64,000 bases of DNA, taken from positions 15,517 through 79,516 of the forward strand of contig DAHUYN010000004.1 in NCBI GenBank assembly GCA_027315165.1, given 5' to 3'. Positions 8,917 to 28,749 of this stretch are shown piece after piece. The translations under genes and the position numbers were made by a program. This DNA comes from Thermoplasmata archaeon. Its GTDB lineage: Archaea > Thermoplasmatota > Thermoplasmata > Lutacidiplasmatales > UBA184. Under the pieces are notes generated by a model. It was not told the origin of the DNA. It made no database searches and saw nothing but the letters and a program-made list of their open reading frames with translations. Each line of letters opens with the position of its first letter. Within the stretch, counting starts at the first letter, position 1.

Positions 8917-8925
8917 GGGACCCCG

Positions 8926-9606
8926 TTATTCGGTCAAGAAGCGGCCGTCGCGCATGTGCAGCGTCCGGTCGCACGCGGAGGCCACCTCCGCGTCGTGGGT
9001 GACGACCACCATCGTCTGGTGGAACTCATGGTTGAGCTGTCGCAAGAGCTCGGTCACCTGCTTTGAGCCCTCGGCGTCGAGGTTCCCGGTGGGCTCGTCC
9101 GCCCAGACGATCGCCGGGTGCGCGACGAGAGCCCGGGCGAGCGAGACTCGTTGCTGCTGGCCGCCGGAGAGCTCCGACGGTCGGTGGCGCAGCCGGTCGC
9201 CGAGGCCCATCTGCGTCAGGATCGCCTTCGCGGCCTCGCGCGCCTCGCGGGCCGAGCGCCCGGCGATGAGCAGGGGCATCTCGACGTTCTCCTCGGCCGA
9301 GAGGATCGGGAGCAGGTTGTAGGACTGGAAGACGAAGCCGGTCCGCCGGGCCCGGTACTCGCTTTTCCTTGCGTCGGGCATCTTGTGGATGTCGGTGCCC
9401 TCGACGGTGACAACGCCCTTCGAGATGTCGTCGAGGCCGCTGAAGCAGTTGAGAAAGGTCGTCTTCCCGCACCCGGACGGGCCCATGACGGCCAGGATCT
9501 CCCCTCGGAAGATCTCGACGTCGATCCCGCGGAGCGCCGGCACGGCCGTCTCGCCGGAGCCGTAGACCTTCCAGACATCCCGGCCGACCACGACGGGCTC
9601 GGGCAC
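8926..9606 (-). CDS. ABC transporter ATP-binding protein, MacB/LolD-like
   Basis: Walker A GPSGCGKTT, signature LSGGQQQRVSLARAL, Walker B IVWADEPTGNLD, H-loop VVVTHD. The preferred start is the in-frame GTG giving VPEPVVVGRDVWKVYG. The track ORF extends to 9819, but its N-terminus is Arg/Pro-rich junk. The promoter lies just upstream. Confidence 0.85.
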   Translation of the reverse strand: MPEPVVVGRDVWKVYGSGETAVPALRGIDVEIFRGEILAVMGPSGCGKTTFLNCFSGLDDISKGVVTVEGTDIHKMPDARKSEYRARRTGFVFQSYNLLPILSAEENVEMPLLIAGRSAREAREAAKAILTQMGLGDRLRHRPSELSGGQQQRVSLARALVAHPAIVWADEPTGNLDAEGSKQVTELLRQLNHEFHQTMVVVTHDAEVASACDRTLHMRDGRFLTE

Positions 9607-9626
9607 GCTCGGGCGTGGCCGGGTCG

Positions 9627-9642
9627 CATATAGCCATATAGC
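9627..9642 (-). promoter_or_regulatory. Archaeal TATA-like box, direct repeat GCTATATG GCTATATG on the coding strand, about 20-35 nt upstream of the GTG start of the MacB-like ATPase
   Basis: The only AT-rich patch in about 500 bp of GC-rich DNA. Position and spacing fit a leaderless archaeal promoter. Confidence 0.4.
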
Positions 9643-10034
9643 CCGGGGTCGGGGAGTCGTAGGGTCGTGTGGCTCGAAGCCTCGTCCCTCCTCGACGAAC
9701 CCCCAGACGTTGGGCCCGCTGCCGGCGCGGGGCCCGGCCGCACGCCTCGGCGGTGGGCGCCTCGGGTCTCGTGCCCGTGGACCGAGGGCGCGAGCGACCG
9801 GAGCGGGGTACGGGCCCACGGAGCCGAGACGAACGCCTCGACAGCCTCCCCGAGGATACGAAGGACCGAAGGCCTCGGCACCCAGCGGCAGGCGCGAGGC
9901 GGAGGCGCGCCCGGGTCGGCCTCTGCGAGCCGGGCTCGTTCCGGCCCCCGGCGGCGACGAGCCGGGGCGACGCGGGGGCGGCGCTCGACGGAGGCTCTAA
10001 GGCCCCCGAGACGCTGCCGCCTTCCAGGTGCGCC

Positions 10035-10235
10035 ATGGTCCAGAAGGTGAGCGAGGTCGTCGGGACGTCGCGAGAGAGCTTTGCCAAGGCCGCGGAGAAC
10101 GCCGTCGTGACCGCGGCGAAGACGGTCCGGAACATCCGTTGGTTCCGGGTCACTGAGTTCGAGGGGTCGGTGAAGGACCAGAAGGTCGCCGAGTATCACA
10201 CGACGGTCAAGATCTACTTCGACCTCGAGCCGTAG
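10035..10235 (+). CDS. Dodecin (flavin-binding dodecameric protein)
   Basis: 66 aa, MVQKVSEVVGTSRESFAKAAENAVVTAAKTVRNIRWFRVTEFEGSVKDQKVAEYHTTVKIYFDLEP. This matches the dodecin pattern (VGTS..S...A...A...A......W.EV.....V.....Y.V.V...F). Confidence 0.75.
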   Translation: MVQKVSEVVGTSRESFAKAAENAVVTAAKTVRNIRWFRVTEFEGSVKDQKVAEYHTTVKIYFDLEP

Positions 10236-10517
10236 GCGTGCAACGCGATCGGCGACGAGCGGCTCGACGCGCGCGCAGCCCTCGAACGGGGCCGAGACGC
10301 TCCTACGCCGCCTCGCCCTCGCGTCCCGGTGCCTCTCGGCGGAGCTCTCGAGCTCCGACGGGACCCACGAGCGGCGCCGAGTCGGCGCAGGCACGTCGGG
10401 CGGGTGAGCCGGCTGGCTAGCGCGAGACCCGGCGCTCGCTCCCTCCCGCGCAGGGGCCGTGGCCCTCACGCCTCGGCAGGGCCGCCCGTCGACCTCGACA
10501 CGGTCGTACCGCGCGCG

Positions 10518-11252
10518 GTGACGCTCGATGCCTGGTACACGCTGATCTATCTGAGGACGCAGGATCGCGAGCGGCTCGAGCGCCTCCGGACGCGCGCCTG
10601 GAGCGGCCCGCTCGTCGCCGCCGGTCTCGACCGGGCGGCGGCCTTGAGGGCGGTCGAGGAGTTGTTCGCCCACGGTGCCGTCGTCGAAGCCCTCGGTCGC
10701 ACGCCCCCGATCCCGGTCCAATGCGCCTGGCTCGCGCGCCACGTCGGCCGACGGGTCCGCTTTGGCGACGTGGCCGACCGCCTCGACGCGGCCCTCTCTC
10801 GGTCCCGCGTCCGTACCGCCCCCGGGGCGCTCGAGGCCCTCGAACGGCTCGCCTCGTCCGGAGTCCGCCTGGGGGTGGTGTCGAACGTGCGCTTCGAGTC
10901 CGGAGCGGCCACGCGGGGCGTTCTCTCCGTCGCCGGAGTGCTCGAGCACGTGGGCCCGCTCGTGCTCTCGTGCGAGCAGCCCTGGTCGAAGCCGCGCCCG
11001 GAGCCGTTCCGACTCTGCCTCCGACAACTCCGGGTCCGGGCCGCCGAAGCCCTCCACGTCGGCGACCTCCCGTACGACGCGATCGGGGCGCGACGCGCCG
11101 GTCTCGAGCCCGTGCTCTACACCGGGCTCCATCGGTGGGAGGTGCCGCGGCCCCGGTTTCCTCGCTTGGTGAGGCCGCAGCGGACGTTCGCCCGGTGGGT
11201 CGACGCGCCGACCGTGCTCTTGCGAGGGTCGACCTCGCGGCGAGCTCGATAG
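10518..11252 (+). CDS. HAD-superfamily hydrolase (subfamily IA-like)
   Basis: Motif II GVVSNV, motif III SKPRPEPF, motif IV VGDLPYDAIGARRAG. The first motif reads TLDAWYTL rather than DxDxT. The start is taken at an in-frame GTG; the 5' end is uncertain. Confidence 0.5.
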   Translation: MTLDAWYTLIYLRTQDRERLERLRTRAWSGPLVAAGLDRAAALRAVEELFAHGAVVEALGRTPPIPVQCAWLARHVGRRVRFGDVADRLDAALSRSRVRTAPGALEALERLASSGVRLGVVSNVRFESGAATRGVLSVAGVLEHVGPLVLSCEQPWSKPRPEPFRLCLRQLRVRAAEALHVGDLPYDAIGARRAGLEPVLYTGLHRWEVPRPRFPRLVRPQRTFARWVDAPTVLLRGSTSRRAR

Positions 11253-11381
11253 CGGACCGCCGACGGTCCCCGACGTACCGGGTCGTGCGCGAGGGGCGTC
11301 CGAAGGGAGGCCCGGGGAGGTCGGGAGCTCCCGTCCCGACGGTCAGACGCTATCATCTTCTCCGCGTCCTCTCGGGCGGAC

Positions 11382-11921
11382 GTGGACCCGATCTCCTGGC
11401 TCCTCGCCTCGGCCGAGGATCCGTACCTCTACCTTCCGTTGCTGTTCCTCTTCGCGACCCTCGCGGCGGTGCTCCTTCCCGTCCCGGTCGAGATCGGACT
11501 GCTCAACCCGTTCCTCTCCCCGGTCCTCCTCGTCCTCGTCGCCTCAGCGGGGAAGGCCTTCGGGGGCGCCCTCGTCTTCCCTCTCGGACGCCGGATCGGA
11601 TCGAGGCTCGAACGCGAGATGGCACGCAGCCCTCGCGCCGCTCGGGTCCATGGGTGGGTCGAGCGGCTGGTCGGCGCGTACGGCTACTGGGCCCTCTTCG
11701 GACTGCTCTCGGTGCCGTTCATGACCGACTCGATCCCGGTCTACGTCTTCTCGATCCTCGGCCCGACCGACCGCTCCGGCGCGCCGTCGGCGGCGGCCGC
11801 CGGGTCCGGCCGTCGCGTCCACGGCTGGCGGGTGGGCCCCTTCGTGGCCGTCAACTTCGCCGCCGCCGTCGTGCGGTGCTCGGCGTTCCTCGTCGTGCCG
11901 TGGCTCCTCGGCTGGCGGTAG
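11382..11921 (+). CDS. DedA/VTT-domain-like membrane protein
   Basis: 179 aa with a GTG start and four hydrophobic segments. ...YWALFGLLSVPFMTDSIPVYVFSIL resembles the DedA/SNARE-associated family. Confidence 0.45.
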   Translation: MDPISWLLASAEDPYLYLPLLFLFATLAAVLLPVPVEIGLLNPFLSPVLLVLVASAGKAFGGALVFPLGRRIGSRLEREMARSPRAARVHGWVERLVGAYGYWALFGLLSVPFMTDSIPVYVFSILGPTDRSGAPSAAAAGSGRRVHGWRVGPFVAVNFAAAVVRCSAFLVVPWLLGWR

Positions 11922-17124: not shown

Positions 17125-17529
17125 GTGGCGTTCCCCTACCTCGACCTCGTCCCGCTCCTCATCTTGGCCTACGTCGTGTACCTCGGGGTCACTCGGAAGG
17201 ACGGACGGTACCCGATCGGGCTCGCCCTCGTCCTGCTCGTCATCGCGGCGATCGTCGATGCCGCGGGGGACCCGAGCGGCGCGAACACGCTCGCCACGTT
17301 CGTCTTCTACCTGCTCGCGGGCGGGGTCCTGCTCCTGCTTGTCGAGCACGTTCGAGAAGCTCGCTCGGGGCCGGATCGGTCGCCGGGGTCGGAGCCTCGA
17401 GCCCCGGAGACCTACGGCGCCACGGACCCCGCCCGGAGCGACCCCGGGCCGCAGAACGGATCGACCCCGGCCCCCTCGGACATCGAGGAGCCGACCGACG
17501 GCCCCGCGCTAGGCTCCGGCACCGTCTAG
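17125..17529 (+). CDS. Small membrane protein, hypothetical
   Basis: 134 aa. Three hydrophobic helices followed by an acidic Pro-rich tail. Confidence 0.35.
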   Translation: MAFPYLDLVPLLILAYVVYLGVTRKDGRYPIGLALVLLVIAAIVDAAGDPSGANTLATFVFYLLAGGVLLLLVEHVREARSGPDRSPGSEPRAPETYGATDPARSDPGPQNGSTPAPSDIEEPTDGPALGSGTV

Positions 17530-18747
17530 CAGCATCGAGCAGACCTCGCAGAGGGGCTCTCCGCTCGGCCCCTGGCGGCCCGCCGCGCAGGTCTTGCACA
17601 GGGGGCGTCCACAGGAACCGCAGGCCCCTGCCCCCGACCTTCCGTGGGGATCGAGCGTCCGGCCGCACGCGGCGCAGGTGCCCTCGGCCGACGTCGGGGC
17701 CGGCACGGGGGGTCGGCGACGCACGATCGTCGCGAGCTCCGAGGCCAGCGCGTCGAGCGCCTCGACGGGTCGGTCGCCGTCCGCGAACGGCGCGGGCGCC
17801 TCGTGGTCCCGCTCGGTCTCCTCGTAGATGGGCCGCCGTTCGTGGAGGTGCGCCCTCGAGGGCCGGTGTGGGGGGCCGTGGCGCGGGACGCTCGGGGCCG
17901 TCGGCGGGGGGCGCGGGGTCGCGCCGCGCGCGAGGGCGTCGAGCGTCTCGAGCACCTGGGCGAGGTCCGCCTCCGAGAGACGTCGGTCCCGCGCCAATCC
18001 CTCGAGGACGCCCTCCTTGCGCGCCTGCTCGACGGCGTTCTCCCACCAGTCCGTGGGGGGCTTGGCCGTCGAGGGCTCAGGGCGACCGAGCTCTCGGGGC
18101 CGCGAGGGTGGCGACGGGCGGGGAGGGGGGGCCGTGGGACGGCTCAAGGGCGCGCCTGGGGGCGGAGCCATCGGCCCCCTCGCGACGTCATCGAAGGGTC
18201 GGACCGCCCGCACGGTCGACCGCATCGCCTCCCACTCCTCGGCGGGAACGGCGACCATCCCCTCGCCGACGCGGTCGCCCGGACGGGGGGACGCGGAGGT
18301 GTCCTCGTGCACGGCCGCGGCAGCGACGCCGCCCCCGACCGCGATCGCCCCGAGGCCGCTGAAGTAGATCCATAGGGGGATCCGGGTCCCGAACGCCCCG
18401 GTGTGGAAGAGGTAGCTATAGACGGCGAGCCCCAGGCAGGTCCCCCCGAACAGGAGGAGCGGGAGGCTTTCCTCCCAGGGTCCCTGGGGGCGCTCCGGTT
18501 TGGCGCGGGCCCTCGTCTCCCGCCGCCGTGGGGGGACGGAGCGGCCGGCGAGCCCGGCCGGTCGCAGCCGACCGCTCGCATCGACGGTACCGGCCCTCGC
18601 GCTCGGGGCCGGGTCCGGCCCACGGGATGCCATTGAGGGTCTATCGGAGGCCGGGCGGCTCGTTAACTCTTCCCTCGAGAGGGCCGGGGGGTTGGGCTCC
18701 GAAGAAGAAGGCCCCCCCGAGGGGGGGAAAGGGTTCGGGGGCGCCAC
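17509..18747 (-). CDS. Hypothetical membrane protein with Pro-rich linkers and a C-terminal double zinc-ribbon
   Basis: TM segments LLLFGGTCLGLAVYSYLF and IPLWIYFSGLGAIAVGGGVAAAAV. C-terminus CAACGRT...CGSCGRPLCKTCAAG...CEVC (four CxxC pairs). The real start is probably an internal Met, because the N-terminus of the track ORF is Pro-rich. Confidence 0.4.
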   Translation of the reverse strand: MAPPNPFPPSGGPSSSEPNPPALSREELTSRPASDRPSMASRGPDPAPSARAGTVDASGRLRPAGLAGRSVPPRRRETRARAKPERPQGPWEESLPLLLFGGTCLGLAVYSYLFHTGAFGTRIPLWIYFSGLGAIAVGGGVAAAAVHEDTSASPRPGDRVGEGMVAVPAEEWEAMRSTVRAVRPFDDVARGPMAPPPGAPLSRPTAPPPRPSPPSRPRELGRPEPSTAKPPTDWWENAVEQARKEGVLEGLARDRRLSEADLAQVLETLDALARGATPRPPPTAPSVPRHGPPHRPSRAHLHERRPIYEETERDHEAPAPFADGDRPVEALDALASELATIVRRRPPVPAPTSAEGTCAACGRTLDPHGRSGAGACGSCGRPLCKTCAAGRQGPSGEPLCEVCSMLLDGAGA

Positions 18748-18784: not shown

Positions 18785-19348
18785 TCAGCAGGAGCCCACG
18801 CTCGTACACTGCGTGACGAGGTCGCTGACCGCGGTGATCGTCACGGGGGACGACCCGGCGCCGAGGTCGTAGACGACCGAGACGATCTGAACGCCCGGGG
18901 CGGCGAACGTCGCGCTCGTCTCGACCCAGAGCGTGATCGGGCTCGCCGTCACGCCGTTGATGAAGACCTGGACCTGGTACTCCAGGTTCGCGGTCGGAGC
19001 GGGGCTGCCGGCCGTGATCGTCAGGTTGATCTTCTGGAGGAAGTCGCCGACGTTCGCGACCGCGTTGAGGTAGTAGAAGTCGGTCGTCGTCGCGGTCGTC
19101 GCGGTGAGGATCGCCGGGACCCCCGCGCTGCTCGTCGACACCGGCGAGGTCGCCGACGCCTGCAGGATGAGGATCGCGGAGGTCGAGACGCCCGCGGGTG
19201 GGGCGCCCGTCGCCGCGTACGAGCCGCCCTGAGGCGGCGGGCTCGTCAGCGTCGTGATCGTCGTTGCCATCACAAATCCCCCCGTCATCGCGATCATCGC
19301 GGCGACGGTCGCCAGATAGATCGTTCGGCGTCGAAGACGTTCTCCCAT
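18785..19348 (-). CDS. Secreted/anchored hypothetical protein (signal-anchor plus Thr/Ser-rich beta-rich domain, two C-terminal Cys)
   Basis: 187 aa, MGERLRRRTIYLATVAAMIAMTGGFVMATT.... Composition is protein-like. An AT-rich promoter lies about 50 nt upstream. Confidence 0.4.
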   Translation of the reverse strand: MGERLRRRTIYLATVAAMIAMTGGFVMATTITTLTSPPPQGGSYAATGAPPAGVSTSAILILQASATSPVSTSSAGVPAILTATTATTTDFYYLNAVANVGDFLQKINLTITAGSPAPTANLEYQVQVFINGVTASPITLWVETSATFAAPGVQIVSVVYDLGAGSSPVTITAVSDLVTQCTSVGSC

Positions 19349-19508: not shown

Positions 19509-19916
19509 ATGCCCAGGTACCCGCCCGGCCCGAAGCTCACGGTCGACGCCGTGTGGATCCGCAGGGGCCGCGTGCTGCTGGTGCGCCGGGGCCGCGAGCC
19601 GTTCCGGGGCCGGTGGGCGTTCCCGGGAGGGTTCGTCGAGGTCGGGGAGACGATGGAGGCGGCCGTCAGCCGCGAGCTCTTGGAGGAGACGGGCCTCGAG
19701 GCCCGGCCCCGAGGCGTCGTCGGGGTCTTCTCGAGGCCGGACCGGGACCCCCGGGGGCACTCCGTGAGCGTCGCCTACCGGATGGTGGGTCGGGCCGGAA
19801 CGCCCGTCGGCGGCGACGACGCCGCGGAGGCCGCCTGGGTCCCGGTCGAGCGTGCGACGACGCTCGCCTTCGACCATGACGAGATCCTGCGGGCCGCCCT
19901 CCGGTCGCGTCGTTAG
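19509..19916 (+). CDS. NUDIX hydrolase
   Basis: Nudix box GGFVEVGETMEAAVSRELLEETGL (G-x5-E-x7-REUxEExGU). 135 aa from the internal ATG. The track ORF starts at 19347, but that N-terminus overlaps the divergent promoter. Confidence 0.75.
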   Translation: MPRYPPGPKLTVDAVWIRRGRVLLVRRGREPFRGRWAFPGGFVEVGETMEAAVSRELLEETGLEARPRGVVGVFSRPDRDPRGHSVSVAYRMVGRAGTPVGGDDAAEAAWVPVERATTLAFDHDEILRAALRSRR

Positions 19917-20563
19917 ACCGCGGTCTTCGACGGCGCGAACGACGGCAGCCGCATCAGGTGTGCGCCGGCCAGGATCGCCCAGAGCAGGATGGGCGCGATG
20001 ATGAGCCGCTCCCACAGGCCGAGGTAGCCCGCCCCGCCGGGGTCGACCTCGAAGAGGACGAGCGCGACGAGCGTGACGACGCCCGAGAGGAACGTGTAGC
20101 CGCGGTAGCCGTCCCAGCGGGTGTCGCGGAAGGTGCCGACACCGAGGCAGAGGAGCGCGATGCCCGAGGCGATGAACGTCGAGGCGCTGACGGCCGTGTG
20201 GATGTGGTCCTGCAGGTCCCCGTTGTTCGTCTCGTGGAAGATGCCGACGAGGATCGCCGACAGCTCCGCGACGACGAGGAAGGCGAGTCCGAGCCTCGCG
20301 AGGGTCTTGGCGGGGAACGCCCGTCGTGCGAGGAGCGTGCCGACGACGCCGGCGAGGCCCAAGAGAATGATGGAGCCGTTGAAGAGCCCGGCGGTCGGGG
20401 ACTGGGGACCGCCGAGGTCGCTCACGTAGTTGGCGAGATCGGAGTAGCCCGGATACCGCAGCTGGACGACGACCATCGCGAGGACGAACTGGAGGGAACC
20501 GAGGGCGAGGAGGGCGCCCCCGAGCCGGGCCGTGCCGGGGACGAGGGGCCCGAGCCGCGTCAT
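19913..20563 (-). CDS. DUF998-like integral membrane protein
   Basis: 216 aa with six TM segments. YPGYSDLANYVSDLG resembles DUF998-family proteins. Confidence 0.55.
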   Translation of the reverse strand: MTRLGPLVPGTARLGGALLALGSLQFVLAMVVVQLRYPGYSDLANYVSDLGGPQSPTAGLFNGSIILLGLAGVVGTLLARRAFPAKTLARLGLAFLVVAELSAILVGIFHETNNGDLQDHIHTAVSASTFIASGIALLCLGVGTFRDTRWDGYRGYTFLSGVVTLVALVLFEVDPGGAGYLGLWERLIIAPILLWAILAGAHLMRLPSFAPSKTAV

Positions 20564-20597: not shown

Positions 20598-20741
20598 TCA
20601 CTCGTCGCGCGCGTTCCGCTCGTAGGAGGCGTCGCTCGTCTTCTTCAGTCGGGCGCCGTCCCGGTCGCAGACGGGTCGGGCGCTCGGGGGCACGTCGATC
20701 ACGTAGCCGCCTCCGCACTTGGGGCACTCGTAGTAGGGCAT
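20598..20741 (-). CDS. Tiny zinc-ribbon protein (47 aa): MPYYECPKCGGGYVIDVPPSARPVCDRDGARLKKTSDASYERNARDE
   Basis: It has its own near-leaderless promoter, TTATATAT, 29 nt upstream of the ATG. CPKC plus a downstream Cys/Asp. It is the C-terminal part of an otherwise junk 411-aa shadow ORF. Confidence 0.45.
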   Translation of the reverse strand: MPYYECPKCGGGYVIDVPPSARPVCDRDGARLKKTSDASYERNARDE

Positions 20742-20768
20742 CGAAGGCCTCGGGCCAGGGTAGGTTCT

Positions 20769-20780
20769 GGATATATAAGG
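20769..20780. promoter_or_regulatory. Palindromic TATA box (gATATATAAgg / ccTTATATATc) serving divergent genes
   Basis: It is 29 nt upstream of the minus-strand zinc-ribbon ATG and about 55 nt upstream of the plus-strand methyltransferase GTG. Confidence 0.45.
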
Positions 20781-20831
20781 CGGTCCGGCCGGGCGCCCGG
20801 GCCCACGAACGGCTATCTGGCGCGGCGGTTC

Positions 20832-21785
20832 GTGTCGGCCACGACCGCGCCTTCTCCGCCGAAGCTCCGACCGCGATCTTCCCGCGGCGTCGCCCGTCCG
20901 AGGCCTGCGAGCGGCCACCGCCCGGTCCCGGCGACGCAGGCCCGGTTCCGTGACCTCGACCGCTACCGGGTCGAGCGGGAGTGGCTCCGGTACGAGGGGA
21001 CGCCACAGCGCGACCTGTTCCGGGAGCTCCGAGCCCGGTTCCTCGAGCGGCACCGCGACCGTCAGGGCTGGTCGCTGGACCTCGGCTCCGGACCGGGCCG
21101 GTTCGCGCCCTACATCGGCGCTGGCGACGCGACGACGGTGCTCGTCGACCTCTCGCTCGAGATGCTCCGGTTCGCCCACGAGGTCGCGCCGGGACCTCGA
21201 GCCCCGTCCCTCGTGCGGGCCGATGCGCTCGCTCCGCCGTTCCGTCCGGCCGCGTTCACGGCGGTGGTCGCGCTCGGCAACCCGCTCGGCTTCGCGGGCG
21301 GGCTCGCCGAGAAGCTCTTGGACCACGCGTCCCGGCTCGTCCGCCCGGGCGGCGTTCTCCTCCTCGAGGCGGTCGCGGGGCCCGGGGAGTCGTCGACGTA
21401 CCTGCGGCGCCTCCCGCCCAGCGCGGTCGCGCGCCTGCTCGCCGCCCCCCTCAATCTCGTCCGCAGTCGCCTGCTGCGGGAGGGCTTTCGGTCCGGGGTC
21501 CCGCGCAAGGAGGAGACGGGCGAGTTCCGGCGTTTCTCCCCGGACGAGCTGGCCCGCGCGCTCGCAGCGCGCGGGTTCAAGGTCGAGGAGCGTCTCGCCG
21601 TCGCCCCCTGTCTCGGAGGCGATCCCGAGCGCGTCGCCGCGGTGCGCCCGGACGGGCACGCCTGGCGAAACCTCCTCGAGCTCGAGGAGACGGTCGGGCG
21701 GCTTCCCGACCGGTGGCCGAGGGCGGCGGCGTGGCTCGTGGCCGCTCGACGCGCGGATGTCCCACGCGCCGATGCGAGCGATTAA
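20832..21785 (+). CDS. Class I SAM-dependent methyltransferase
   Basis: Motif I WSLDLGSGPGRF, motif II VLVDLS, post-I acidic loop ADALAPPF. The start is set at the first in-frame GTG after the bidirectional promoter. The track ORF extends to 20532, which would overlap the divergent genes. Confidence 0.6.
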   Translation: MSATTAPSPPKLRPRSSRGVARPRPASGHRPVPATQARFRDLDRYRVEREWLRYEGTPQRDLFRELRARFLERHRDRQGWSLDLGSGPGRFAPYIGAGDATTVLVDLSLEMLRFAHEVAPGPRAPSLVRADALAPPFRPAAFTAVVALGNPLGFAGGLAEKLLDHASRLVRPGGVLLLEAVAGPGESSTYLRRLPPSAVARLLAAPLNLVRSRLLREGFRSGVPRKEETGEFRRFSPDELARALAARGFKVEERLAVAPCLGGDPERVAAVRPDGHAWRNLLELEETVGRLPDRWPRAAAWLVAARRADVPRADASD

Positions 21786-21808
21786 GTAGCCCCCCCACCC
21801 CTGAATCA

Positions 21809-24439
21809 GTGGGCCAGGGGCGTCCCGTGGCACGAACGAAGGCGAGCGGCCGCACGAACGCCCCGGCGTCGGGCCGGTCCCCCTCCCGCGCCGCCCCGTT
21901 GCCCCCGAAGGTCCGGGTCCCCTCCGAGGAGGACCTCGAGCTCGCGCGGAGCGACGCCCTCCTGCAGCTCCGCATCGGGCGCTCCGCGCACTACTACTCG
22001 ATCCTCGTCGCGATGGCGCTGCTGTTCGACGCGGCGCTCGTCCTCTACATCCAGCCGAACATCACGTCGGTCGAGCCGGCGCAGATCCGGTCGGTCTTCT
22101 TCCTGCTCTTCCCGCTGATCGGTGGGATTTTCCTGGCGCTCTTCGGGCTCCGTGTGAAGTGGGAGACCTACCAGCTCTGGCCGTGGGAGGCCCACTTCTC
22201 GATGAGCCTCGCCGCGGTCGCCTACAACGGGGTGCTCGTCTACATCTTCTTCGCCTCGCTGCTCCACTTCGGCCCCACCGGCCACTGGTCGCTCCTCCCG
22301 TGGTTCTACCCCGGCGTTCTCGGCGGCCTCTCCCTCGCCCTCCTCGGGCTGTCGCTCACCTGGAGCGAGTGGACGCAGCGAAAGACGGTGAGCCTGGTCG
22401 CGGCGCTCCTCCCCGTGCCGTTCGCCGCGGTCGTCTACGGCTTCGGGCTCACGGCGTCGTCCATCGTCGATGCGCTGGCCCTCTCGCTCAGCACCGCCGC
22501 GGTCCTCTACCTGATCTCGGGAGGCTTCCTCCACATCATCTCCTCGGGCACGCGGACCCACGAACGGGAGGTGATCACCTCGGGACAGAGCCGCCTGTTC
22601 CAGGTCGCCGAGGAGGTCCGCCAGAAGGAGGAGGCGTTCCGGTTCCGCGAGGGGACGCTCCTCAAGCGCGAGGCCGACGCGGAGGACCTCGAGGCGAGCC
22701 TCTCGAGACAGCATCAGGCGCTCGACGAGGCCCGCGCGCAGCTCGCCCAGCAGGAGACCGAGCTCGGACAGCGGCTCGCCGACCTCCGCACGGCGGAGGA
22801 GAGCTGGGCGACGCGGTCGGCCGAGGCGAACGCTCTCCAACAGGCGGCGAAGGACCGCGAGTCGGCGCTCGCGCTCCGCGAGAAGGACCTCGCGGGCCAG
22901 AGCCCGCGGCTGGCGGAGCGGGAGCGCACCGTCACGCAGCGCGAGGGCGAGCAACGACAGCGGGAGGTCGAGCTCGGGCGGCGCGAGCAGGAGCTGCAAC
23001 GACGGCTCTCGGGGATCCCCGAGAGCGAGGCCGCCCTTGAACGCCGACGTCAGGAGGTCGACCGGCGCACCGCGGAGCTTCTTCAGCGGGAGAGCACGCT
23101 GCGCACGCGGGAGGCCGCGGCCGGGAACGCCGCCGCGTCCACCGCGGGAGCCACCCCCGGCGGGCTCGAGGAGCGTGAGGCGCACCTCGCGCAGCTGAAG
23201 ATGACGCTCGACGAGCAGAACCTCGCGCTCGGACGACGCGCCCGCCAGATCGACGAGATGCTCAAGGACGTCCTGCGGCGCGAGGAGGGCCTCGGCCGCC
23301 GGGAGTCCGACCTCACCGGGCGCGAGGGTGCCCTCACGCAGCGCGAGACGGACGCGAAGGGGCAGTTCGACCTCGGCGAGAGCCGCCGCCAGCAGTACGA
23401 GGGCGCGATGCAGCAGTACGCCGACCGCCTCAAGCAGGTCGACGTCAAGGAGGCGACCGTCAACGCTCGGCGCCTCGAGATCGAACGCCAGGGCACGCTC
23501 GCGCAACAGCGCGAGGCCCAGCTCAAGGAAAGGGACCAGCAGCTCGCCGTTCAGCGGACCTCGCTCGATCGGCTGCAGCGGGTCCTCGCCGAGCGGCAGA
23601 AGAGCCTCGAGGCGCGCGAGGACGAGCTCGCGCTCCGCCGACAACAGACGGGCGGCGTCGCGGCGCCGACCGCCGAGCTCGCCGAGGCGGAGCCGCTCGC
23701 CCGGCCCGTCGCCACACGCTTTAAGGACCGCGAACCCACCGGAACGCCCCGGCTCGACGACCTGCTCCAGGGCGGGCTCGGCGCGAAGAGCCACCTGCTC
23801 CTGCTCGGCGACGCGTTCGTCGGGAAGGAGGTCGTCCTCTACGCGTTCCTCGCCGAGGGGCTCAAGCGGGGCGAGCCGGCCGTCATCGTGACGACCTCCC
23901 GCTCCCCCGAGGAGGTCGGCCAGCAGATCGGGCTCGTCGCGCCCCAGTTCCGCGAGTACGAGCAGATGGGCAAGGTCGCGTGGGTCGATGCCACAGCCTC
24001 GACACAGACCGGGACCTCGAGCCGGAAGATCTCCGGCCCGGACGACCATGCCGGGATCCTTTCGGCCGTCGTCGCCGCCTGCAAGCGGTTTGACGGCGCC
24101 GGCGCGAAGGCCGTCCGGGTCGGGTACCTCGGGCTCACCTCGACCCTGGCCCACGCCGACGACCGGGCGGCGACGGTCTTCGTCCAGAACTTCGTCGGGA
24201 TCCTCAAGCCTCGAGCGGCGCTCGCGATGTACACGGTCGAGGCCGGGGCGCTCCCCGAGGCCCGCGTCGAGGGGATCCTCTCGCGGATGGACGGGGCGAT
24301 CCGCTTTCGGCAAGAGCGCGACAAGACGTTCCTCCAGGTCGCCGGTCTCGGCGAGGTCGAGACGCGCGAGTGGGTCGAGTGCCGGGCCACGAACCGGGCT
24401 CTCGTCATCGGGTCGTTCACGCTCGAGCGCATCCGATAA
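21809..24439 (+). CDS. Large membrane protein: N-terminal 6-8 TM domain, about 470-aa charged coiled-coil, and a C-terminal KaiC/RecA-like domain with degenerate Walker A/B (predicted pseudo-ATPase)
   Basis: TM region ILVAMALLFDAALVLYI...VPFAAVVYGFGL. Coiled-coil heptad-like ERE/QRE repeats (LAQQETELGQRLADLRTAEE...). C-terminal HLLLLGDAFVGKEVVLYAFLAEGLKRGEPAVIVTT, where Walker A is GxxxxGKE rather than GKS/T, and the Walker B position reads VRVGYLGLTS with no Asp. The GTG start is uncertain by a few tens of nucleotides. Confidence 0.7.
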   Translation: MGQGRPVARTKASGRTNAPASGRSPSRAAPLPPKVRVPSEEDLELARSDALLQLRIGRSAHYYSILVAMALLFDAALVLYIQPNITSVEPAQIRSVFFLLFPLIGGIFLALFGLRVKWETYQLWPWEAHFSMSLAAVAYNGVLVYIFFASLLHFGPTGHWSLLPWFYPGVLGGLSLALLGLSLTWSEWTQRKTVSLVAALLPVPFAAVVYGFGLTASSIVDALALSLSTAAVLYLISGGFLHIISSGTRTHEREVITSGQSRLFQVAEEVRQKEEAFRFREGTLLKREADAEDLEASLSRQHQALDEARAQLAQQETELGQRLADLRTAEESWATRSAEANALQQAAKDRESALALREKDLAGQSPRLAERERTVTQREGEQRQREVELGRREQELQRRLSGIPESEAALERRRQEVDRRTAELLQRESTLRTREAAAGNAAASTAGATPGGLEEREAHLAQLKMTLDEQNLALGRRARQIDEMLKDVLRREEGLGRRESDLTGREGALTQRETDAKGQFDLGESRRQQYEGAMQQYADRLKQVDVKEATVNARRLEIERQGTLAQQREAQLKERDQQLAVQRTSLDRLQRVLAERQKSLEAREDELALRRQQTGGVAAPTAELAEAEPLARPVATRFKDREPTGTPRLDDLLQGGLGAKSHLLLLGDAFVGKEVVLYAFLAEGLKRGEPAVIVTTSRSPEEVGQQIGLVAPQFREYEQMGKVAWVDATASTQTGTSSRKISGPDDHAGILSAVVAACKRFDGAGAKAVRVGYLGLTSTLAHADDRAATVFVQNFVGILKPRAALAMYTVEAGALPEARVEGILSRMDGAIRFRQERDKTFLQVAGLGEVETREWVECRATNRALVIGSFTLERIR

Positions 24440-27848: not shown

Positions 27849-28058
27849 ATGGGGGAGACGGGACGGTCGCCCGAGAAACCGGAGAAGACGGTCCATCTGC
27901 GCATCGACCCGAACGATGAGAGCACGACCCTCGAGGACGTCCTCACGAAGATCTCGGAGCTCCAGCGCCGGCACCCCGACCGCGAGGTCTTCTTCGACGG
28001 CGATGAGTACGCGATCTGCTCCCGCCCCAAGCGTCCCCGTGCCGCGGTCTCCCACTAG
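27849..28058 (+). CDS. Small acidic protein (69 aa), hypothetical
   Basis: MGETGRSPEKPEKTVHLRIDPNDESTTLEDVLTKISELQRRHPDREVFFDGDEYAICSRPKRPRAAVSH. It lies immediately downstream of the strong promoter motif. Its 3' end overlaps the proposed tpiA start. Confidence 0.35.
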   Translation: MGETGRSPEKPEKTVHLRIDPNDESTTLEDVLTKISELQRRHPDREVFFDGDEYAICSRPKRPRAAVSH

Positions 28059-28749
28059 GCCCCGGGGGCTCGGGTCCCCGCTCCTCCTGCTCAACCTCAA
28101 GGCCTATCCGAACGCCTTCGGACCCGCGGCCGAGCGCCTGGGCCGGCTCTTGGAGGCGCGGGGCGTCGAGCACGGGGTCGAGGTGGCGATCGCTCCCGCG
28201 GCCCCGGACGTGGGGCTCCTCGCGAGGTCGCTCGGGATCCCGGTGCTCGCGCAACACGTCGACCCGGGCGGACCCGGCGCGCGCACGGGCTGGCTTCCCG
28301 CGGCCGCCCTGCGAGGCGCGGGCGCCACCGGCAGCCTGTTGAACCACTCCGAGCACCGGACCCCGCTGGCCGAGCTCCGTGCCGCGGTCGCCGCGTTGCG
28401 AGAGGTGCATCTCGTCTCGGTCGTCTGCGCCAAGGACGCGGTCGAGGCCCGGCGCCTCGCCGCCCTCGAGCCCGAGTTCCTCGCGGTCGAGCCGCCCGAG
28501 CTGATCGGCGGCACGATCTCGGTCTCGAGCGCGAGACCCGAGGTCGTCTCGGAGAGCGTCGTGGGCGTGCATCGAGCGTCGCCGACGACCCGCGTCCTCT
28601 GCGGCGCGGGCGTGCACGACCGGGCCGACGTCCGAAAGGCGCTCGAGCTCGGCGCGGCGGGCGTCCTCGTCGCGAGCGCCGTCACGAGGGCTTCCGACCC
28701 CAAGGCCGCGCTCGACGAGCTCCTCGCCGGGTTCCCGCCACGCCGCTAG
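28003..28749 (+). CDS. tpiA: Triosephosphate isomerase, archaeal short type
   Basis: ...LLLLNLKAYPNAFG..., active-site region GSLLNHSEHR, CGAGV (the C-terminal loop motif). The archaeal-sized body is about 225 aa. The ATG at 28003 is the first in-frame ATG; the start could also be a non-ATG codon near 28060. Confidence 0.8.
   Translation: MSTRSAPAPSVPVPRSPTRPRGLGSPLLLLNLKAYPNAFGPAAERLGRLLEARGVEHGVEVAIAPAAPDVGLLARSLGIPVLAQHVDPGGPGARTGWLPAAALRGAGATGSLLNHSEHRTPLAELRAAVAALREVHLVSVVCAKDAVEARRLAALEPEFLAVEPPELIGGTISVSSARPEVVSESVVGVHRASPTTRVLCGAGVHDRADVRKALELGAAGVLVASAVTRASDPKAALDELLAGFPPRR

Follow-up and report, generated by a model that had tools for sequence, protein, structure and literature searches.

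Inactivated KaiC domains have already been recognised as an element of archaeal signalling proteins (PMC5847659). The locus described here, which lies in a window of 64 kb (the whole stretch of DNA analysed), encodes a soil Thermoplasmata protein that combines a long stalk, predicted to be a helical hairpin, with a KaiC-like domain in which all ATPase residues are replaced, an architecture not described before. The protein has three parts: a bundle of six transmembrane (TM) helices, a heptad rod, and a C-terminal domain with a KaiC/RecA fold. In contrast to KaiC, this last domain lacks the Walker A Thr, the catalytic Glu-Glu and the Walker B Asp. The window contains no second KaiC-like gene.

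The locus and its large gene

Positions 20598-24439 hold three genes, all found where the first-pass annotation had placed them: a minus-strand gene for a 47-aa Zn-ribbon protein, a class I SAM methyltransferase gene, and a large gene for a protein of 870 or 876 aa. A DUF998 gene, which follows the Zn-ribbon gene on the minus strand, is part of a conserved four-gene block.

19913..20563, minus strand: DUF998 membrane protein, 216 aa (Pfam DUF998, 101.3 bits)
20598..20741, minus strand: Zn47, a 47-aa Zn-ribbon protein (open reading frame; motif C6-x2-C9...C25-x2-D28)
20771-20778, no strand assigned: palindromic ATATATAA TATA box, 30 nt upstream of the Zn47 ATG
20832..21785, plus strand: class I SAM-dependent methyltransferase, 317 aa, GTG start (Pfam; start analysis; P0305)
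21781..21788, plus strand: AT-rich box TTAAGTAG, 38 nt ahead of the conserved large-gene start (family consensus gaTTAAGTAac)
21827..24439, plus strand: large protein, 870 aa (GC3; full-length homologues; conserved start context)

The open reading frame of the 876-aa product proposed at first was retained, but the comparative alignment favours GTG 21827, giving 870 aa, as the most likely start. The start context CCCGTGGC is conserved, and the identical NCBI protein P0001 also has 870 aa; residue numbers nevertheless follow the 876-aa numbering (alternative GTG 21809). GC3 reaches 0.935 over the whole reading frame and 0.89-0.97 per 300-nt block, charged rod included, and more than 120 homologues, with full-length identity of at least 45%, align across 95-100% of the protein. 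The coiled-coil region is therefore not a frame artefact, the possibility that the first-pass annotation had named as fatal to its reading. Every one of the more than 120 full-length orthologues comes from Thermoplasmata MAGs. High conservation together with an apparently single copy is compatible with structural housekeeping as well as with signalling.

The TTAAGTAG box occurs once in the window and is found, with at most one mismatch and at a fixed distance to the start, in 69 of 77 loci. The stop codon of the methyltransferase overlaps it in a frame that differs between loci, and the box is probably a TATA-like promoter element of the large gene. Since the large gene has a conserved AT-rich box of its own, co-transcription with the methyltransferase is not required.

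The inactivated KaiC domain

The C-terminal domain and the three elements that correspond to the active site of KaiC are located as follows.

23726..24436, plus strand: inactivated KaiC/RecA-fold (iKaiC) domain, aa 640-876 (Pfam, Foldseek, profile-versus-PDB alignments)
23807..23830, plus strand: degenerate P-loop GDAFVGKE, aa 667-674 (counterpart of GTGKT in KaiC and PH0284)
23885..23908, plus strand: IVTTSRSP, aa 693-700 (HMMER alignments to KaiC and PH0284)
24113..24142, plus strand: VRVGYLGLTS, aa 769-778, the Walker B-equivalent strand (HMMER alignment to 8zn5_B; AF2 strand)

The KaiC/RecA-like fold first assigned by eye is borne out by Pfam KaiC (PF06745), which matches aa 643-837 with 51.8 bits (cut-off 26.6), by an AF2 model of aa 599-876 with a pLDDT of 89.8, and by Foldseek, which returns PH0284 as the best relative (TM 0.82, E=1e-14) together with KaiC, FlaH, PH0186 and SSO2452. 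DUF835, named earlier as the closest idea, gave no match at E<=1, and the Pfam scan of the large protein detected no recognisable output domain.

The P-loop reads GDAFVGKE, as originally noticed, and retains its Lys, while the Walker A Thr/Ser has become Glu; 21 aligned sequences show no variation at G667, F670, G672, K673 and E674. The catalytic Glu-Glu of KaiC (VTFEESP) is replaced by S697-R698 (VTtSRSP), with R698 at least 90% conserved in 21 sequences. The loss of the Walker B Asp (RVVID in KaiC) was correctly foreseen, in that the strand holds no acidic residue, but the residue aligned to it by HMMER against 8zn5_B is L774 and not G775, as had been read. AF2 places this strand at domain residues 171-176, and G775 and L776 are invariant. 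Because these replacements of catalytic residues are conserved family-wide, with little or no variation at these positions in sets of 21 and 120 sequences, the non-catalytic role suggested from the sequence at first is the sensible reading.

The invariance of the P-loop Gly and Lys in the long forms of the family, as well as a Pfam KaiC score above threshold, would also be expected if the domain were still an active ATPase or kinase using a non-canonical site, with, for example, E674 standing in for Thr in Mg2+ coordination. This is very improbable, as three separate catalytic elements have been lost together and their losses conserved, and the NCBIfam KaiC equivalogs score far under their cut-offs (at most 45 bits versus more than 240). 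Furthermore, short forms of the family (549-671 aa), in which a Pro-rich linker joins both end domains and the long rod is absent, lack the P-loop Lys yet retain the other family motifs.

The membrane domain and the heptad rod

The remaining two parts of the protein, which precede the iKaiC domain, comprise the following features.

21914..22549, plus strand: N-terminal cytoplasmic helix and 6-TM bundle, aa 36-247 (hydropathy; AF2 model; invariant columns)
22574..23116, plus strand: rod arm 1, aa 256-436, about 26 heptads in a single unbroken register, consensus L-x-x-R-E-x-E
23117..23164, plus strand: variable Ala/Gly-rich linker, aa 437-452, the proposed hairpin turn (alignment, phase shift, covariation)
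23165..23644, plus strand: rod arm 2, aa 453-612, about 23 heptads in a single unbroken register

The polytopic membrane domain of the first-pass annotation corresponds to a bundle of six TM helices according to both hydropathy and the AF2 model (pLDDT 88.5; helices 40-81, 93-121, 128-151, 166-182, 190-209 and 216-247). It anchors the large protein, both ends of which are cytoplasmic. Its conserved motifs (DALLQLRIG, KWExYQLWPWExHF, LTWxxW and HxISSGTRxHERE) all face the cytoplasm. Outside the cell there are just short, variable loops, and therefore no obvious sensor. A search for structural relatives of the bundle detected none, and a profile search found just 72 clusters among 1.84 billion representatives. 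Most of the 72 clusters listed have lengths fitting the same architecture or are truncated fragments; among the ten that were scanned for domains, nine carry the KaiC-like domain and the tenth, P0265, is an ABC-permease fusion. Like the short forms, this distribution speaks for a coupling of the membrane and KaiC-like domains.

The rod covers about 360 aa (aa 256-612) instead of the 470 or so first attributed to a coiled coil, and its consensus L-x-x-R-E-x-E offers one hydrophobic position per heptad. Aliphatic residues make up 80% of position a, Arg/Lys 63% of d and Glu 47% of e, and the hydrophobic autocorrelation amounts to 0.575 at lag 7 and 0.47 at lag 35. As each heptad has a single hydrophobic residue and both e and g are acidic, the rod is a poor canonical coiled coil whatever its orientation. 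The very long coiled coil initially described is not supported: the heptads are not of the canonical a/d type, and covariation points to a folded-back hairpin and not to an extended rod of 470 aa. In the linker the alignment is variable and gapped and the heptad phase shifts, and the heptad arms that flank it are equally long, at about 160 residues (aa ~277-436 and 453-610). Indels in the arms are nearly all of exactly 7 residues, apart from one highly divergent sequence and a small number of changes of 1-2 residues where the arms end. Heptad deletions in a single arm occur while the other arm is unchanged, which speaks against paired arms. Directly after the turn, arm 2 holds a conserved QLKxxLDEQNxxLGR segment.

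In APC-corrected mutual information between the arms, computed from about 80-90 effective sequences, the maximum lies on the anti-diagonal i+j=887 (z=3.5). This axis is centred on the Ala/Gly linker, and of the top twelve anti-diagonals the majority fall inside 876-896. The band 885-893, predicted beforehand from the loop midpoint, beat 2000 of 2000 register-preserving permutations in both sequence sets. The ridge ranks first to fourth of about 40 bands in all six rod sub-segments, and it survives the removal of pairs less than 140 residues apart. Seven sum classes are possible, and a↔d' layers arise in that of 887 alone. This pattern suggests that the arms run antiparallel against each other and form a hairpin some 23 heptads and about 24 nm long, although a domain-swapped antiparallel dimer would give the same covariation, and that in each core layer Leu, Val or Ile at a would be paired with Arg at d'. 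As an antiparallel hairpin, the stalk would project into the cytoplasm and bring the iKaiC domain back towards the membrane domain, no more than a few nanometres away.

The very regular heptad periodicity could also belong to a rod extended over about 50 nm with no hairpin, be it a single alpha-helix or a parallel coiled coil of two or three chains, and the iKaiC domain would then be kept well away from the membrane. Judging from the heptad composition, a ladder of salt bridges within one helix, of the kind usual in single alpha-helices, could arise through E(g)→R(d) at i+4 and R(d)→E(g) at i+3, and in divergent homologues the mid-rod break is a one-residue phase shift with no Pro/Gly, followed by a longer part than the one before it. 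An extended rod is nonetheless somewhat unlikely given the anti-diagonal ridge at a loop-centred position and in the a↔d' register, the equal arms, the placement of the variable loop exactly mid-rod, and the direct adjacency of the end domains in the short forms.

Proposed role and companion genes

The large protein is tentatively regarded, at a little less than an even chance, as a scaffold or transducer that is non-catalytic, tethered to the membrane and based on the iKaiC domain. The signalling or cytoskeleton-like module first suggested for the locus is conjectural. Here, the functional head would consist of the 6-TM and iKaiC domains and may bind nucleotide or phosphate through the retained Lys without hydrolysing ATP, while the hairpin would serve as a fixed-length arm whose conserved tip-adjacent segments recruit or report to partners. 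Such a role would suit the proposed KaiC-centred archaeal signalling network.

KaiC-fold domains usually oligomerise, as in the hexamers of KaiC and PH0284, and the iKaiC domain could be just an oligomerisation module in a structural protein of the envelope or of the membrane skeleton, working as a fixed-length spacer or ruler that orders the inner membrane face, or acting in shape or division. This would agree with an apparently single-copy gene (80 loci in 80 MAG assemblies) conserved at no less than 45% identity over its full length, with the strict conservation of rod length and register, where arm indels are nearly always whole heptads, with the absence of a sensor or output domain, and with a strongly conserved promoter-like box belonging to the gene itself. 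It is unlikely, however, as no sign of polymerisation is seen, a single hydrophobic seam is weak for lateral assembly, and the hairpin model points the rod away from the membrane and not along it. Short family members are rod-free, so the rod is not the conserved core.

Returning to the scaffold or transducer, its genetic neighbourhood was counted in 80 loci from 80 different MAG assemblies of the clade. The methyltransferase lies upstream of the large gene in 78/80 loci (median gap 36 nt), and Zn47 and the DUF998 gene are each kept in 68/80, with an identical arrangement in L083. The conservation of the neighbourhood expected at the outset holds for the Zn47/methyltransferase/large-gene block in this one Thermoplasmata clade, but not beside the two divergent homologues examined, P0259 and P0244, which have other neighbours. 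The methyltransferase, Zn-ribbon and DUF998 genes are clade-specific companions, with only a putative link to the large protein.

The class I assignment of the methyltransferase stands, as in the correct reading frame it passes the Pfam cut-offs of Methyltransf_25, _11 and _23. Its start is GTG 20832, with no alternative in-frame start ahead of motif I; the identical P0305 likewise has 317 aa, and the protein belongs to a clade-specific orthologue family. As CheR does on chemoreceptor hairpins, the adjacent enzyme might methylate Glu, Gln or Arg of the arms, making the large protein an MCP-like adaptation device with tunable signalling from membrane head to tip. The methyltransferase is catalytically intact, directly upstream and co-distributed with the large gene in the clade, the rod, a predicted antiparallel hairpin, is rich in E, Q and R, and, in MCPs and the large protein alike, the most conserved part of the rod is near the turn. 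Such a device is nevertheless quite unlikely: the methyltransferase is a generic Methyltransf_25/11 protein with no CheR match, whose closest solved structures are the uncharacterised TM1389 (2avn) and PH0226 (1ve3), besides small-molecule methyltransferases; the rod matches neither MCPsignal nor HAMP; P0259 and P0244 have no adjoining methyltransferase; and the large gene has its own promoter-like box. Archaellum genes are, moreover, absent from Lutacidiplasmatales (PMC9287336).

The only Pfam match of Zn47 is ADK_lid, under its cut-off. Its identity is 75-98% in nearly all 68 loci, mostly above 85%, with two lower outliers, and the alignment shows the invariant motif MPYYECPxCGGGYV...CDRDGAxLK. 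Both the Zn-ribbon and its palindromic box were rightly recognised at first, but the TATA-to-ATG spacing leaves a leader of about 8 nt, so that the gene is not strictly leaderless. A TATA-like hexamer is present at -48..-28 of the Zn-ribbon gene in 67/68 loci, versus 0.17% of random windows, and this conservation supports the promoter proposed at first. The ATATATAA box, one of just 16 AT-rich 8-mers in the 64-kb window, may serve the methyltransferase too, on the opposite strand.

Genes, reading frame and distribution

At the ~71% G+C of the window, long spurious ORFs are common. Three real genes lie within 20598-24439 and, together with the gene behind the smallest of them, they make up the following four-gene block:

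19913-20563, minus strand: DUF998 gene
20598-20741, minus strand: Zn47, an ORF for a 47-aa putative Zn-ribbon protein, product MPYYECPKCGGGYVIDVPPSARPVCDRDGARLKKTSDASYERNARDE
20832-21785, plus strand: MTase, a class I SAM methyltransferase gene running from GTG 20832; 317 aa, as in the identical database protein P0305
21827-24439, plus strand: gene of the large protein, 870 aa (876 aa from GTG 21809, the version used for residue numbers)

The GTG start of the MTase lies ahead of its SAM-binding motif and has no in-frame alternative, and a gap of 23 nt separates this gene from the large ORF. The large ORF has an overall GC3 of 0.935, with 0.89-0.97 per 300-nt block from 21881 onward; in its upstream extension the GC3 signature matches the MTase frame. 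The first-pass annotation had allowed that the coiled-coil region might be a frame artefact. This is ruled out by GC3 together with the existence of full-length homologues.

A search of 5.8 billion proteins with the large protein returned 230 matches, the best 120 of which are 849-936 aa long and align, with 45-100% identity, over 95-100% of the query. Among these best 120, the named sources are all Thermoplasmata MAGs, and the annotations read only "ATPase domain-containing", "KaiC/GvpD/RAD55 family" or hypothetical. With each GTDB species represented by a single genome, 120 relatives turned up and 80 loci were retrieved, all but two labelled Thermoplasmata and the other two Methanobacteriota and "bacterium". 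Most of the 80 loci derive from MAG series of soils, peat, and acid soils (such as JOPF, SPRUCE, MFD, and AcS), and some relatives carry the label Candidatus Lutacidiplasmatales, an uncultured lineage of ~69% GC that is devoid of archaellum genes and predicted to be non-motile (PMC9287336). The gene ranks among the most conserved "dark-matter" genes of uncultured soil archaea of the TMEG/Lutacidiplasmatales type. No description of its architecture was found in the searchable literature, a search outside which the 2017 mBio paper on KaiC hubs lies.

The inactivated KaiC domain and its membrane partner

The KaiC/RecA-like fold that had been read at the C terminus of the large protein is confirmed by three lines of evidence. 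Pfam KaiC (PF06745) scores 51.8 bits over aa 643-837 (cut-off 26.6); aa 599-876, modelled by AF2 from 120 sequences, reach a pLDDT of 89.8 with strands and helices in the expected order; and Foldseek with this model retrieves PH0284 as the best match (TM 0.82, E=1e-14), in a set at E ~1e-13 to 1e-14 that also includes KaiC, FlaH, PH0186, and SSO2452. The NCBIfam KaiC equivalogs stay at or below 45 bits against cut-offs >240, and FlaH at 15 bits against 194. The kinship with DUF835 (PF05763) suggested earlier did not hold, as the Pfam scan of the large protein gave no match at E<=1. In the whole study this domain occurred only in a 1010-aa AAA_16/DUF835/TPR protein (8791-11823 of locus L085), encoded two genes downstream of the divergent homologue P0244.

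HMMER alignments to the solved KaiC and PH0284 chains place the active-site replacements as follows.

Active-site positions of KaiC and their equivalents in the large protein
Walker A: GTGKT in KaiC, GDAFVGKE in the large protein (Thr to Glu), which departs from GxxxxGK[T/S]
Catalytic glutamates after strand 2: VTFEESP in KaiC, VTTSRSP in the large protein (Glu-Glu to Ser-Arg, S697-R698)
Walker B: RVVID in KaiC, RVGYL in the large protein (Asp to Leu 774)

The degenerate Walker A of the first-pass annotation stands, since GDAFVGKE aligns to GTGKT with an invariant Glu in place of Thr. The loss of the Walker B acidic residue stands as well, the equivalent strand (aa 769-778) having no Asp or Glu, but the lost Asp corresponds to L774 and not to G775, one residue off the original assignment. 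Among 21 diverse members G667, F670, G672, K673, E674, G775, and L776 are invariant and R698 nearly so, and the residues of the degenerate site are similarly conserved in 120 sequences. This family-wide invariance indicates a site under selection, not one in decay.

Disrupted catalytic motifs in a KaiC-superfamily domain, the mark of an inactivated KaiC (iKaiC) domain, are present here, and the large protein is classified as a new form of the known inactivated KaiC-domain proteins. Makarova, Galperin and Koonin are said to have noted such domains, and KaiC-like ATPases have reportedly been proposed as native signaling hubs of archaea. To our knowledge, studies exist for hardly any of the KaiC-like ATPases of archaea and for none of the inactivated ones; the present family supplies a well-defined and strongly conserved case of a dead KaiC domain wired to a membrane. 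With the archaeal KaiC-like ATPases (PF06745; PH0284, 2dr3; PH0186, 2zts; SSO2452, 2w0m) the large protein has in common the fold, the N-terminal "PTGxxxLDxLLxGG" motif, and the overall strand order. Unlike the single-domain ATPases, it adds an unrelated 6-TM domain and a ~360-aa rod, predicted to be a hairpin.

Degenerate KaiC/RecA-like domains are also known from DUF7504 (PF24336), DUF7090 (PF23365), and the sensory domain MEDS (PF14417), all thought to be non-catalytic. DUF7504 and DUF7090 are haloarchaeal; these two families and MEDS belong, as far as is known, to other lineages, in which the proteins are soluble or have different fusions. Several members of the present family, among them the divergent relatives P0266 and P0259, exceed the DUF7504 cut-off. 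The large protein itself has no DUF7504 match in the Pfam scan, and stays below the cut-offs of DUF7090 (19.7 against 27) and MEDS (20.8 against 29.8). The loss of catalytic residues is common to the large protein and the iKaiC domains treated in PMC5847659, where inactivated KaiC domains are cited as an element of archaeal signaling proteins. Neither the large protein nor its neighbor genes contain REC, PAS, HTH, HalOD, or similar signaling domains, and no second KaiC-like gene was found within the 64-kb window.

The N-terminal part of the large protein comprises six TM helices, joined on the outside by short, variable loops, and ahead of them a cytoplasmic helix (aa 40-62), as given by hydropathy and an AF2 model (pLDDT 88.5). 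By the positive-inside rule both of its ends would be cytoplasmic, which fits a KaiC domain located in the cytoplasm. The invariant motifs all lie at the cytoplasmic boundary.

Invariant motifs of the 6-TM domain
DALLQLRIG: ahead of TM1
KWExYQLWPWExHF: TM2-TM3 loop
LTWxxW: past TM4
HxISSGTRxHERE: past TM6

The same boundary holds conserved H61, H129, H242, and H251 together with E119, E127, E252, and E254 (window 21989-22564, plus strand), and H129 is retained even in all four divergent long homologues examined. It is conceivable that the cluster forms a metal or haem site.

No relative of this domain is known. Foldseek found no structural match below E=0.1, the best being cytochrome b561 at E=0.14, and a HMMER profile run against 1.84 billion representative proteins gathered only 72 clusters, most of which share the 850-970-aa architecture or represent pieces of it. 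GPxFxGKE is retained by the divergent, Lys-rich members (934-970 aa). Three short forms (P0264, P0268, and P0283, of 549, 566, and 671 aa; locus L087) combine the same membrane domain, through a Pro-rich linker, with a KaiC-like domain lacking the P-loop Gly-Lys. These short forms identify membrane domain and dead KaiC domain as the conserved pair, and the rod as an insert of variable length. A separate arrangement is seen in P0265 (1107 aa), where four tandem copies of the 6-TM domain are fused to an OppC-type ABC permease (BPD_transp_1, OppC_N).

The rod, its likenesses and possible roles

The region between both domains (aa 251-640) is composed of 15% Arg, 15% Glu, 14% Ala, 12% Leu, and 10% Gln. 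Across the family, the autocorrelation of hydrophobic positions reaches 0.575 at lag 7 and is still 0.47 at lag 35. One register extends over aa 256-436 and another over aa 453-612, separated by a variable, Ala/Gly-rich segment (aa 437-452), and divergent homologues likewise have two long single-register arms with a mid-rod break. The heptad reads L-x-x-R-E-x-E, with 80% Leu/Val/Ile at a, 63% Arg/Lys at d, 47% Glu at e, and 44% Glu/Asp at g. This is not the pattern of a canonical two-stranded coiled coil, in which a and d are both hydrophobic, and a code with Leu at a and Arg at d is unusual enough to be of interest for coiled-coil structural biology. The rod (22574-23644, plus strand; aa 256-612) comprises ~48 heptads without a stutter, even across the conserved P366 and P404. 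Arm indels are rare among 144 full-length sequences, and nearly all of them are of exactly seven residues. A precomputed match on most homologues, PF27881 ("CRWN_N (faint)"), was discarded as coiled-coil noise.

Pairing of the two arms was examined by APC-corrected mutual information in the 144 sequences (effective number 92). The top anti-diagonal is i+j=887 (z=3.5), and most of the twelve best lie within 876-896, control diagonals having no comparable cluster. The midpoint of the linker predicts 889, and the a-priori band 885-893 surpassed all 2000 permutations, in which arm-2 columns were shuffled within heptad phase. With the 129 sequences free of rod indels the permutation outcome was the same and 887 was again the top anti-diagonal. 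The ridge ranks first to fourth of ~40 bands in each of six rod sub-segments, and persists when pairs closer than 140 residues are removed. Among the seven i+j residue classes, only that of 887 pairs arm-1 a with arm-2 d and vice versa, a pairing typical of antiparallel coiled coils. This covariation favors, with statistical support, the rod as an antiparallel hairpin of ~23 heptads and ~24 nm, although it is equally compatible with intermolecular, domain-swapped antiparallel pairing and the number of sequences is modest.

In the window protein, the predicted layers run from R434-L453 and L431-R456 out to R280-L607 and F277-R610, most of them consisting of one aliphatic residue and one Arg, and the contact axis at i+j≈887 makes the structural model testable. 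The hairpin would return the KaiC-like domain to ~20-30 residues from the membrane domain, in agreement with the direct adjacency of both domains in the short forms. Covariation between the membrane and iKaiC domains is many-to-many in its top pairs and looks phylogenetic, with a cytoplasmic-face enrichment of 50% against 33%.

Three known systems resemble parts of this arrangement. As in SMC/Rad50/MukB, N- and C-terminal globular parts, the latter with a P-loop-type fold, would meet through a long intramolecular coiled coil whose antiparallel arms run to an apex. In contrast to these proteins, the N-terminal part of the large protein is a membrane domain and not half an ABC ATPase head, the predicted arm measures ~24 nm against ~50 nm and lacks both hinge and zinc hook, the RecA-like domain appears inactive from its motifs, and NCBIfam SMC scores only 11 bits. 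ArlH (FlaH) with ArlX (FlaX) offers a KaiC-fold protein anchored by a membrane scaffold that combines TM and coiled-coil parts, and FlaH (4yds) is among the best structural matches of the large protein; no archaellum genes were found in the neighborhoods examined. Identity with DUF835, MCPsignal, HAMP, CheR, the FlaH equivalog, or SMC was rejected, the matches being absent or far below cut-off.

The third likeness is to methyl-accepting chemotaxis proteins (MCPs) and their methyltransferase CheR, and with it comes the proposal that the neighboring MTase methylates the hairpin arms. A membrane anchor followed by a long antiparallel helical hairpin (a predicted one in the large protein), the most conserved part near the turn, whole-heptad indels, and a SAM methyltransferase encoded alongside are features of both systems. 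The assignment of the MTase to class I in the first-pass annotation proved sound: Methyltransf_25 (43.9 bits) and Methyltransf_11 (42.4 bits) are both over their Pfam cut-offs, and G48, G50, P51, G52, R53, and F54 of the SAM-binding motif (consensus GSGPGRF) are invariant in orthologues, so that the enzyme is, as far as its motifs tell, intact. Its homologues are same-clade orthologues named only "class I SAM-dependent methyltransferase", and its closest solved relatives are TM1389 and PH0226, both uncharacterised, or small-molecule methyltransferases; CheR is absent among its PDB and NCBIfam matches. The large protein further differs from MCPs in having one hydrophobic position per heptad and no four-helix-bundle core, in the KaiC-fold domain that follows the hairpin, and in belonging to a lineage predicted to be non-motile. 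It has no Pfam match to MCPsignal or HAMP, and symmetric paired arm indels of the MCP type were not found, its whole-heptad indels being mostly confined to one arm. Methylation of the arms after the manner of MCPs is unlikely on this evidence; should the rod prove to be a substrate of the MTase, the pair would represent an adaptation system evolved independently of chemotaxis.

The large protein itself we infer to be a non-catalytic, membrane-tethered scaffold or transducer. The 6-TM/iKaiC pair would form its head, and the hairpin an arm of fixed length with conserved segments near the tip. A structural or ruler role is the less likely reading. A fuller proposal, put forward here as a long shot, is an undescribed archaeal membrane device: the novel 6-TM domain docked to the dead KaiC would act as the head, the 24-nm antiparallel hairpin with its Leu/Arg layers would relay or read the membrane state to partners at the tip, modification of the arms by the MTase would mirror chemoreceptor adaptation, with no chemotaxis machinery involved, and Zn47 would serve as partner or regulator. 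The large protein would fit the proposed KaiC-centered signaling network of archaea (PMC5847659).

The gene block and its probable promoter boxes

Conservation of the neighborhood, which had been named as a check on the module, was found within the clade. The counts below come from tblastn of the window neighbors against the 80 loci, many of the loci without Zn47 being short or ending near the gene.

Window neighbors of the large gene in 80 homologous loci
MTase, directly upstream on the same strand: 78/80
Zn47, divergent: 68/80
DUF998 gene behind Zn47: 68/80
NUDIX: 22/80
PurT: 28/80
Downstream membrane gene of the window: 9/80

A group consisting of a 94-aa ORF, a 69-aa ORF, and the triosephosphate isomerase gene is found on either side of the block, differing by genome, which indicates that the four-gene block stayed whole while rearrangements disrupted its flanks. 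The block is clade-specific: next to the divergent homologues P0259 and P0244 lie unrelated genes.

The 94-aa and 69-aa ORFs, which travel with the isomerase gene, are 70-88% identical across the clade. Two further ORFs of the window, at 17509-18747 and 18785-19348, were matched by neither Pfam nor NCBIfam, lack counterparts in the 80 related loci, and appear to be lineage-specific.

17509-18747, minus strand: 412-aa Pro-rich ORF with a TM segment and a C-terminal CxxC...CxxC cluster
18785-19348, minus strand: 187-aa ORF with an N-terminal hydrophobic segment
27464-27748, minus strand: 94-aa ORF
27849-28058, plus strand: 69-aa ORF
28060-28749, plus strand: triosephosphate isomerase gene

Zn47 is mostly 85-98% identical across the clade, against ~50% for its neighbors. 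Its invariant motif is MPYYECPxCGGGYV...CDRDGAxLK, with C6, C25, and D28 invariant and C9 nearly so as candidates for two metal-binding knuckles (CxxC ... CxxC/D/H), and its sole Pfam match is ADK_lid, at 22.6 bits below the cut-off of 26.6. Its homologues come only from Thermoplasmata MAGs, and the same genomes encode paralogues of 62-64 aa with Lys/Arg-rich tails in another gene context (L081 7001-7195, L082 6184-6378); a universal small protein of the ribosome or RNA polymerase was ruled out on both grounds.

The TATA-like box of Zn47 is ATATATAA. Of 68 loci, 67 have a TATA-like hexamer at -48..-28, a feature of 0.17% of random windows; in most loci the hexamer starts 34-41 nt upstream of the ATG, a position that implies a leader of ~8 nt. 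The promoter recognized in the first-pass annotation is retained, but its leaderless spacing is not.

The large gene has an AT-rich box of its own, gaTTAAGTAac (window 21781-21788, plus strand), which is probably its TATA-like promoter element. With at most one mismatch it is found in 69 of 77 loci, and variants of it in most of the others. It lies 38 nt upstream of the conserved GTG/ATG, which in the window is GTG 21827 and not 21809, and ~9 nt past it follows a conserved (A/C)CCCAT or CCCTG. It has a single occurrence in the 64-kb window, where AT-rich 8-mers number only 16 in all. Two or three frames of the box contain a stop codon, and the MTase stop falls within it in a frame differing between loci, which argues for conservation at the DNA level. 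A leader RNA stem ACCCTG...CAGGGT, seen by eye upstream of the large gene, was dismissed after RNAalifold gave no consensus pairs. The conserved boxes provide a small but usable set of data on promoter geometry in a high-GC lineage; near-invariance of the kind seen in gaTTAAGTAac is unusual for a TATA box.
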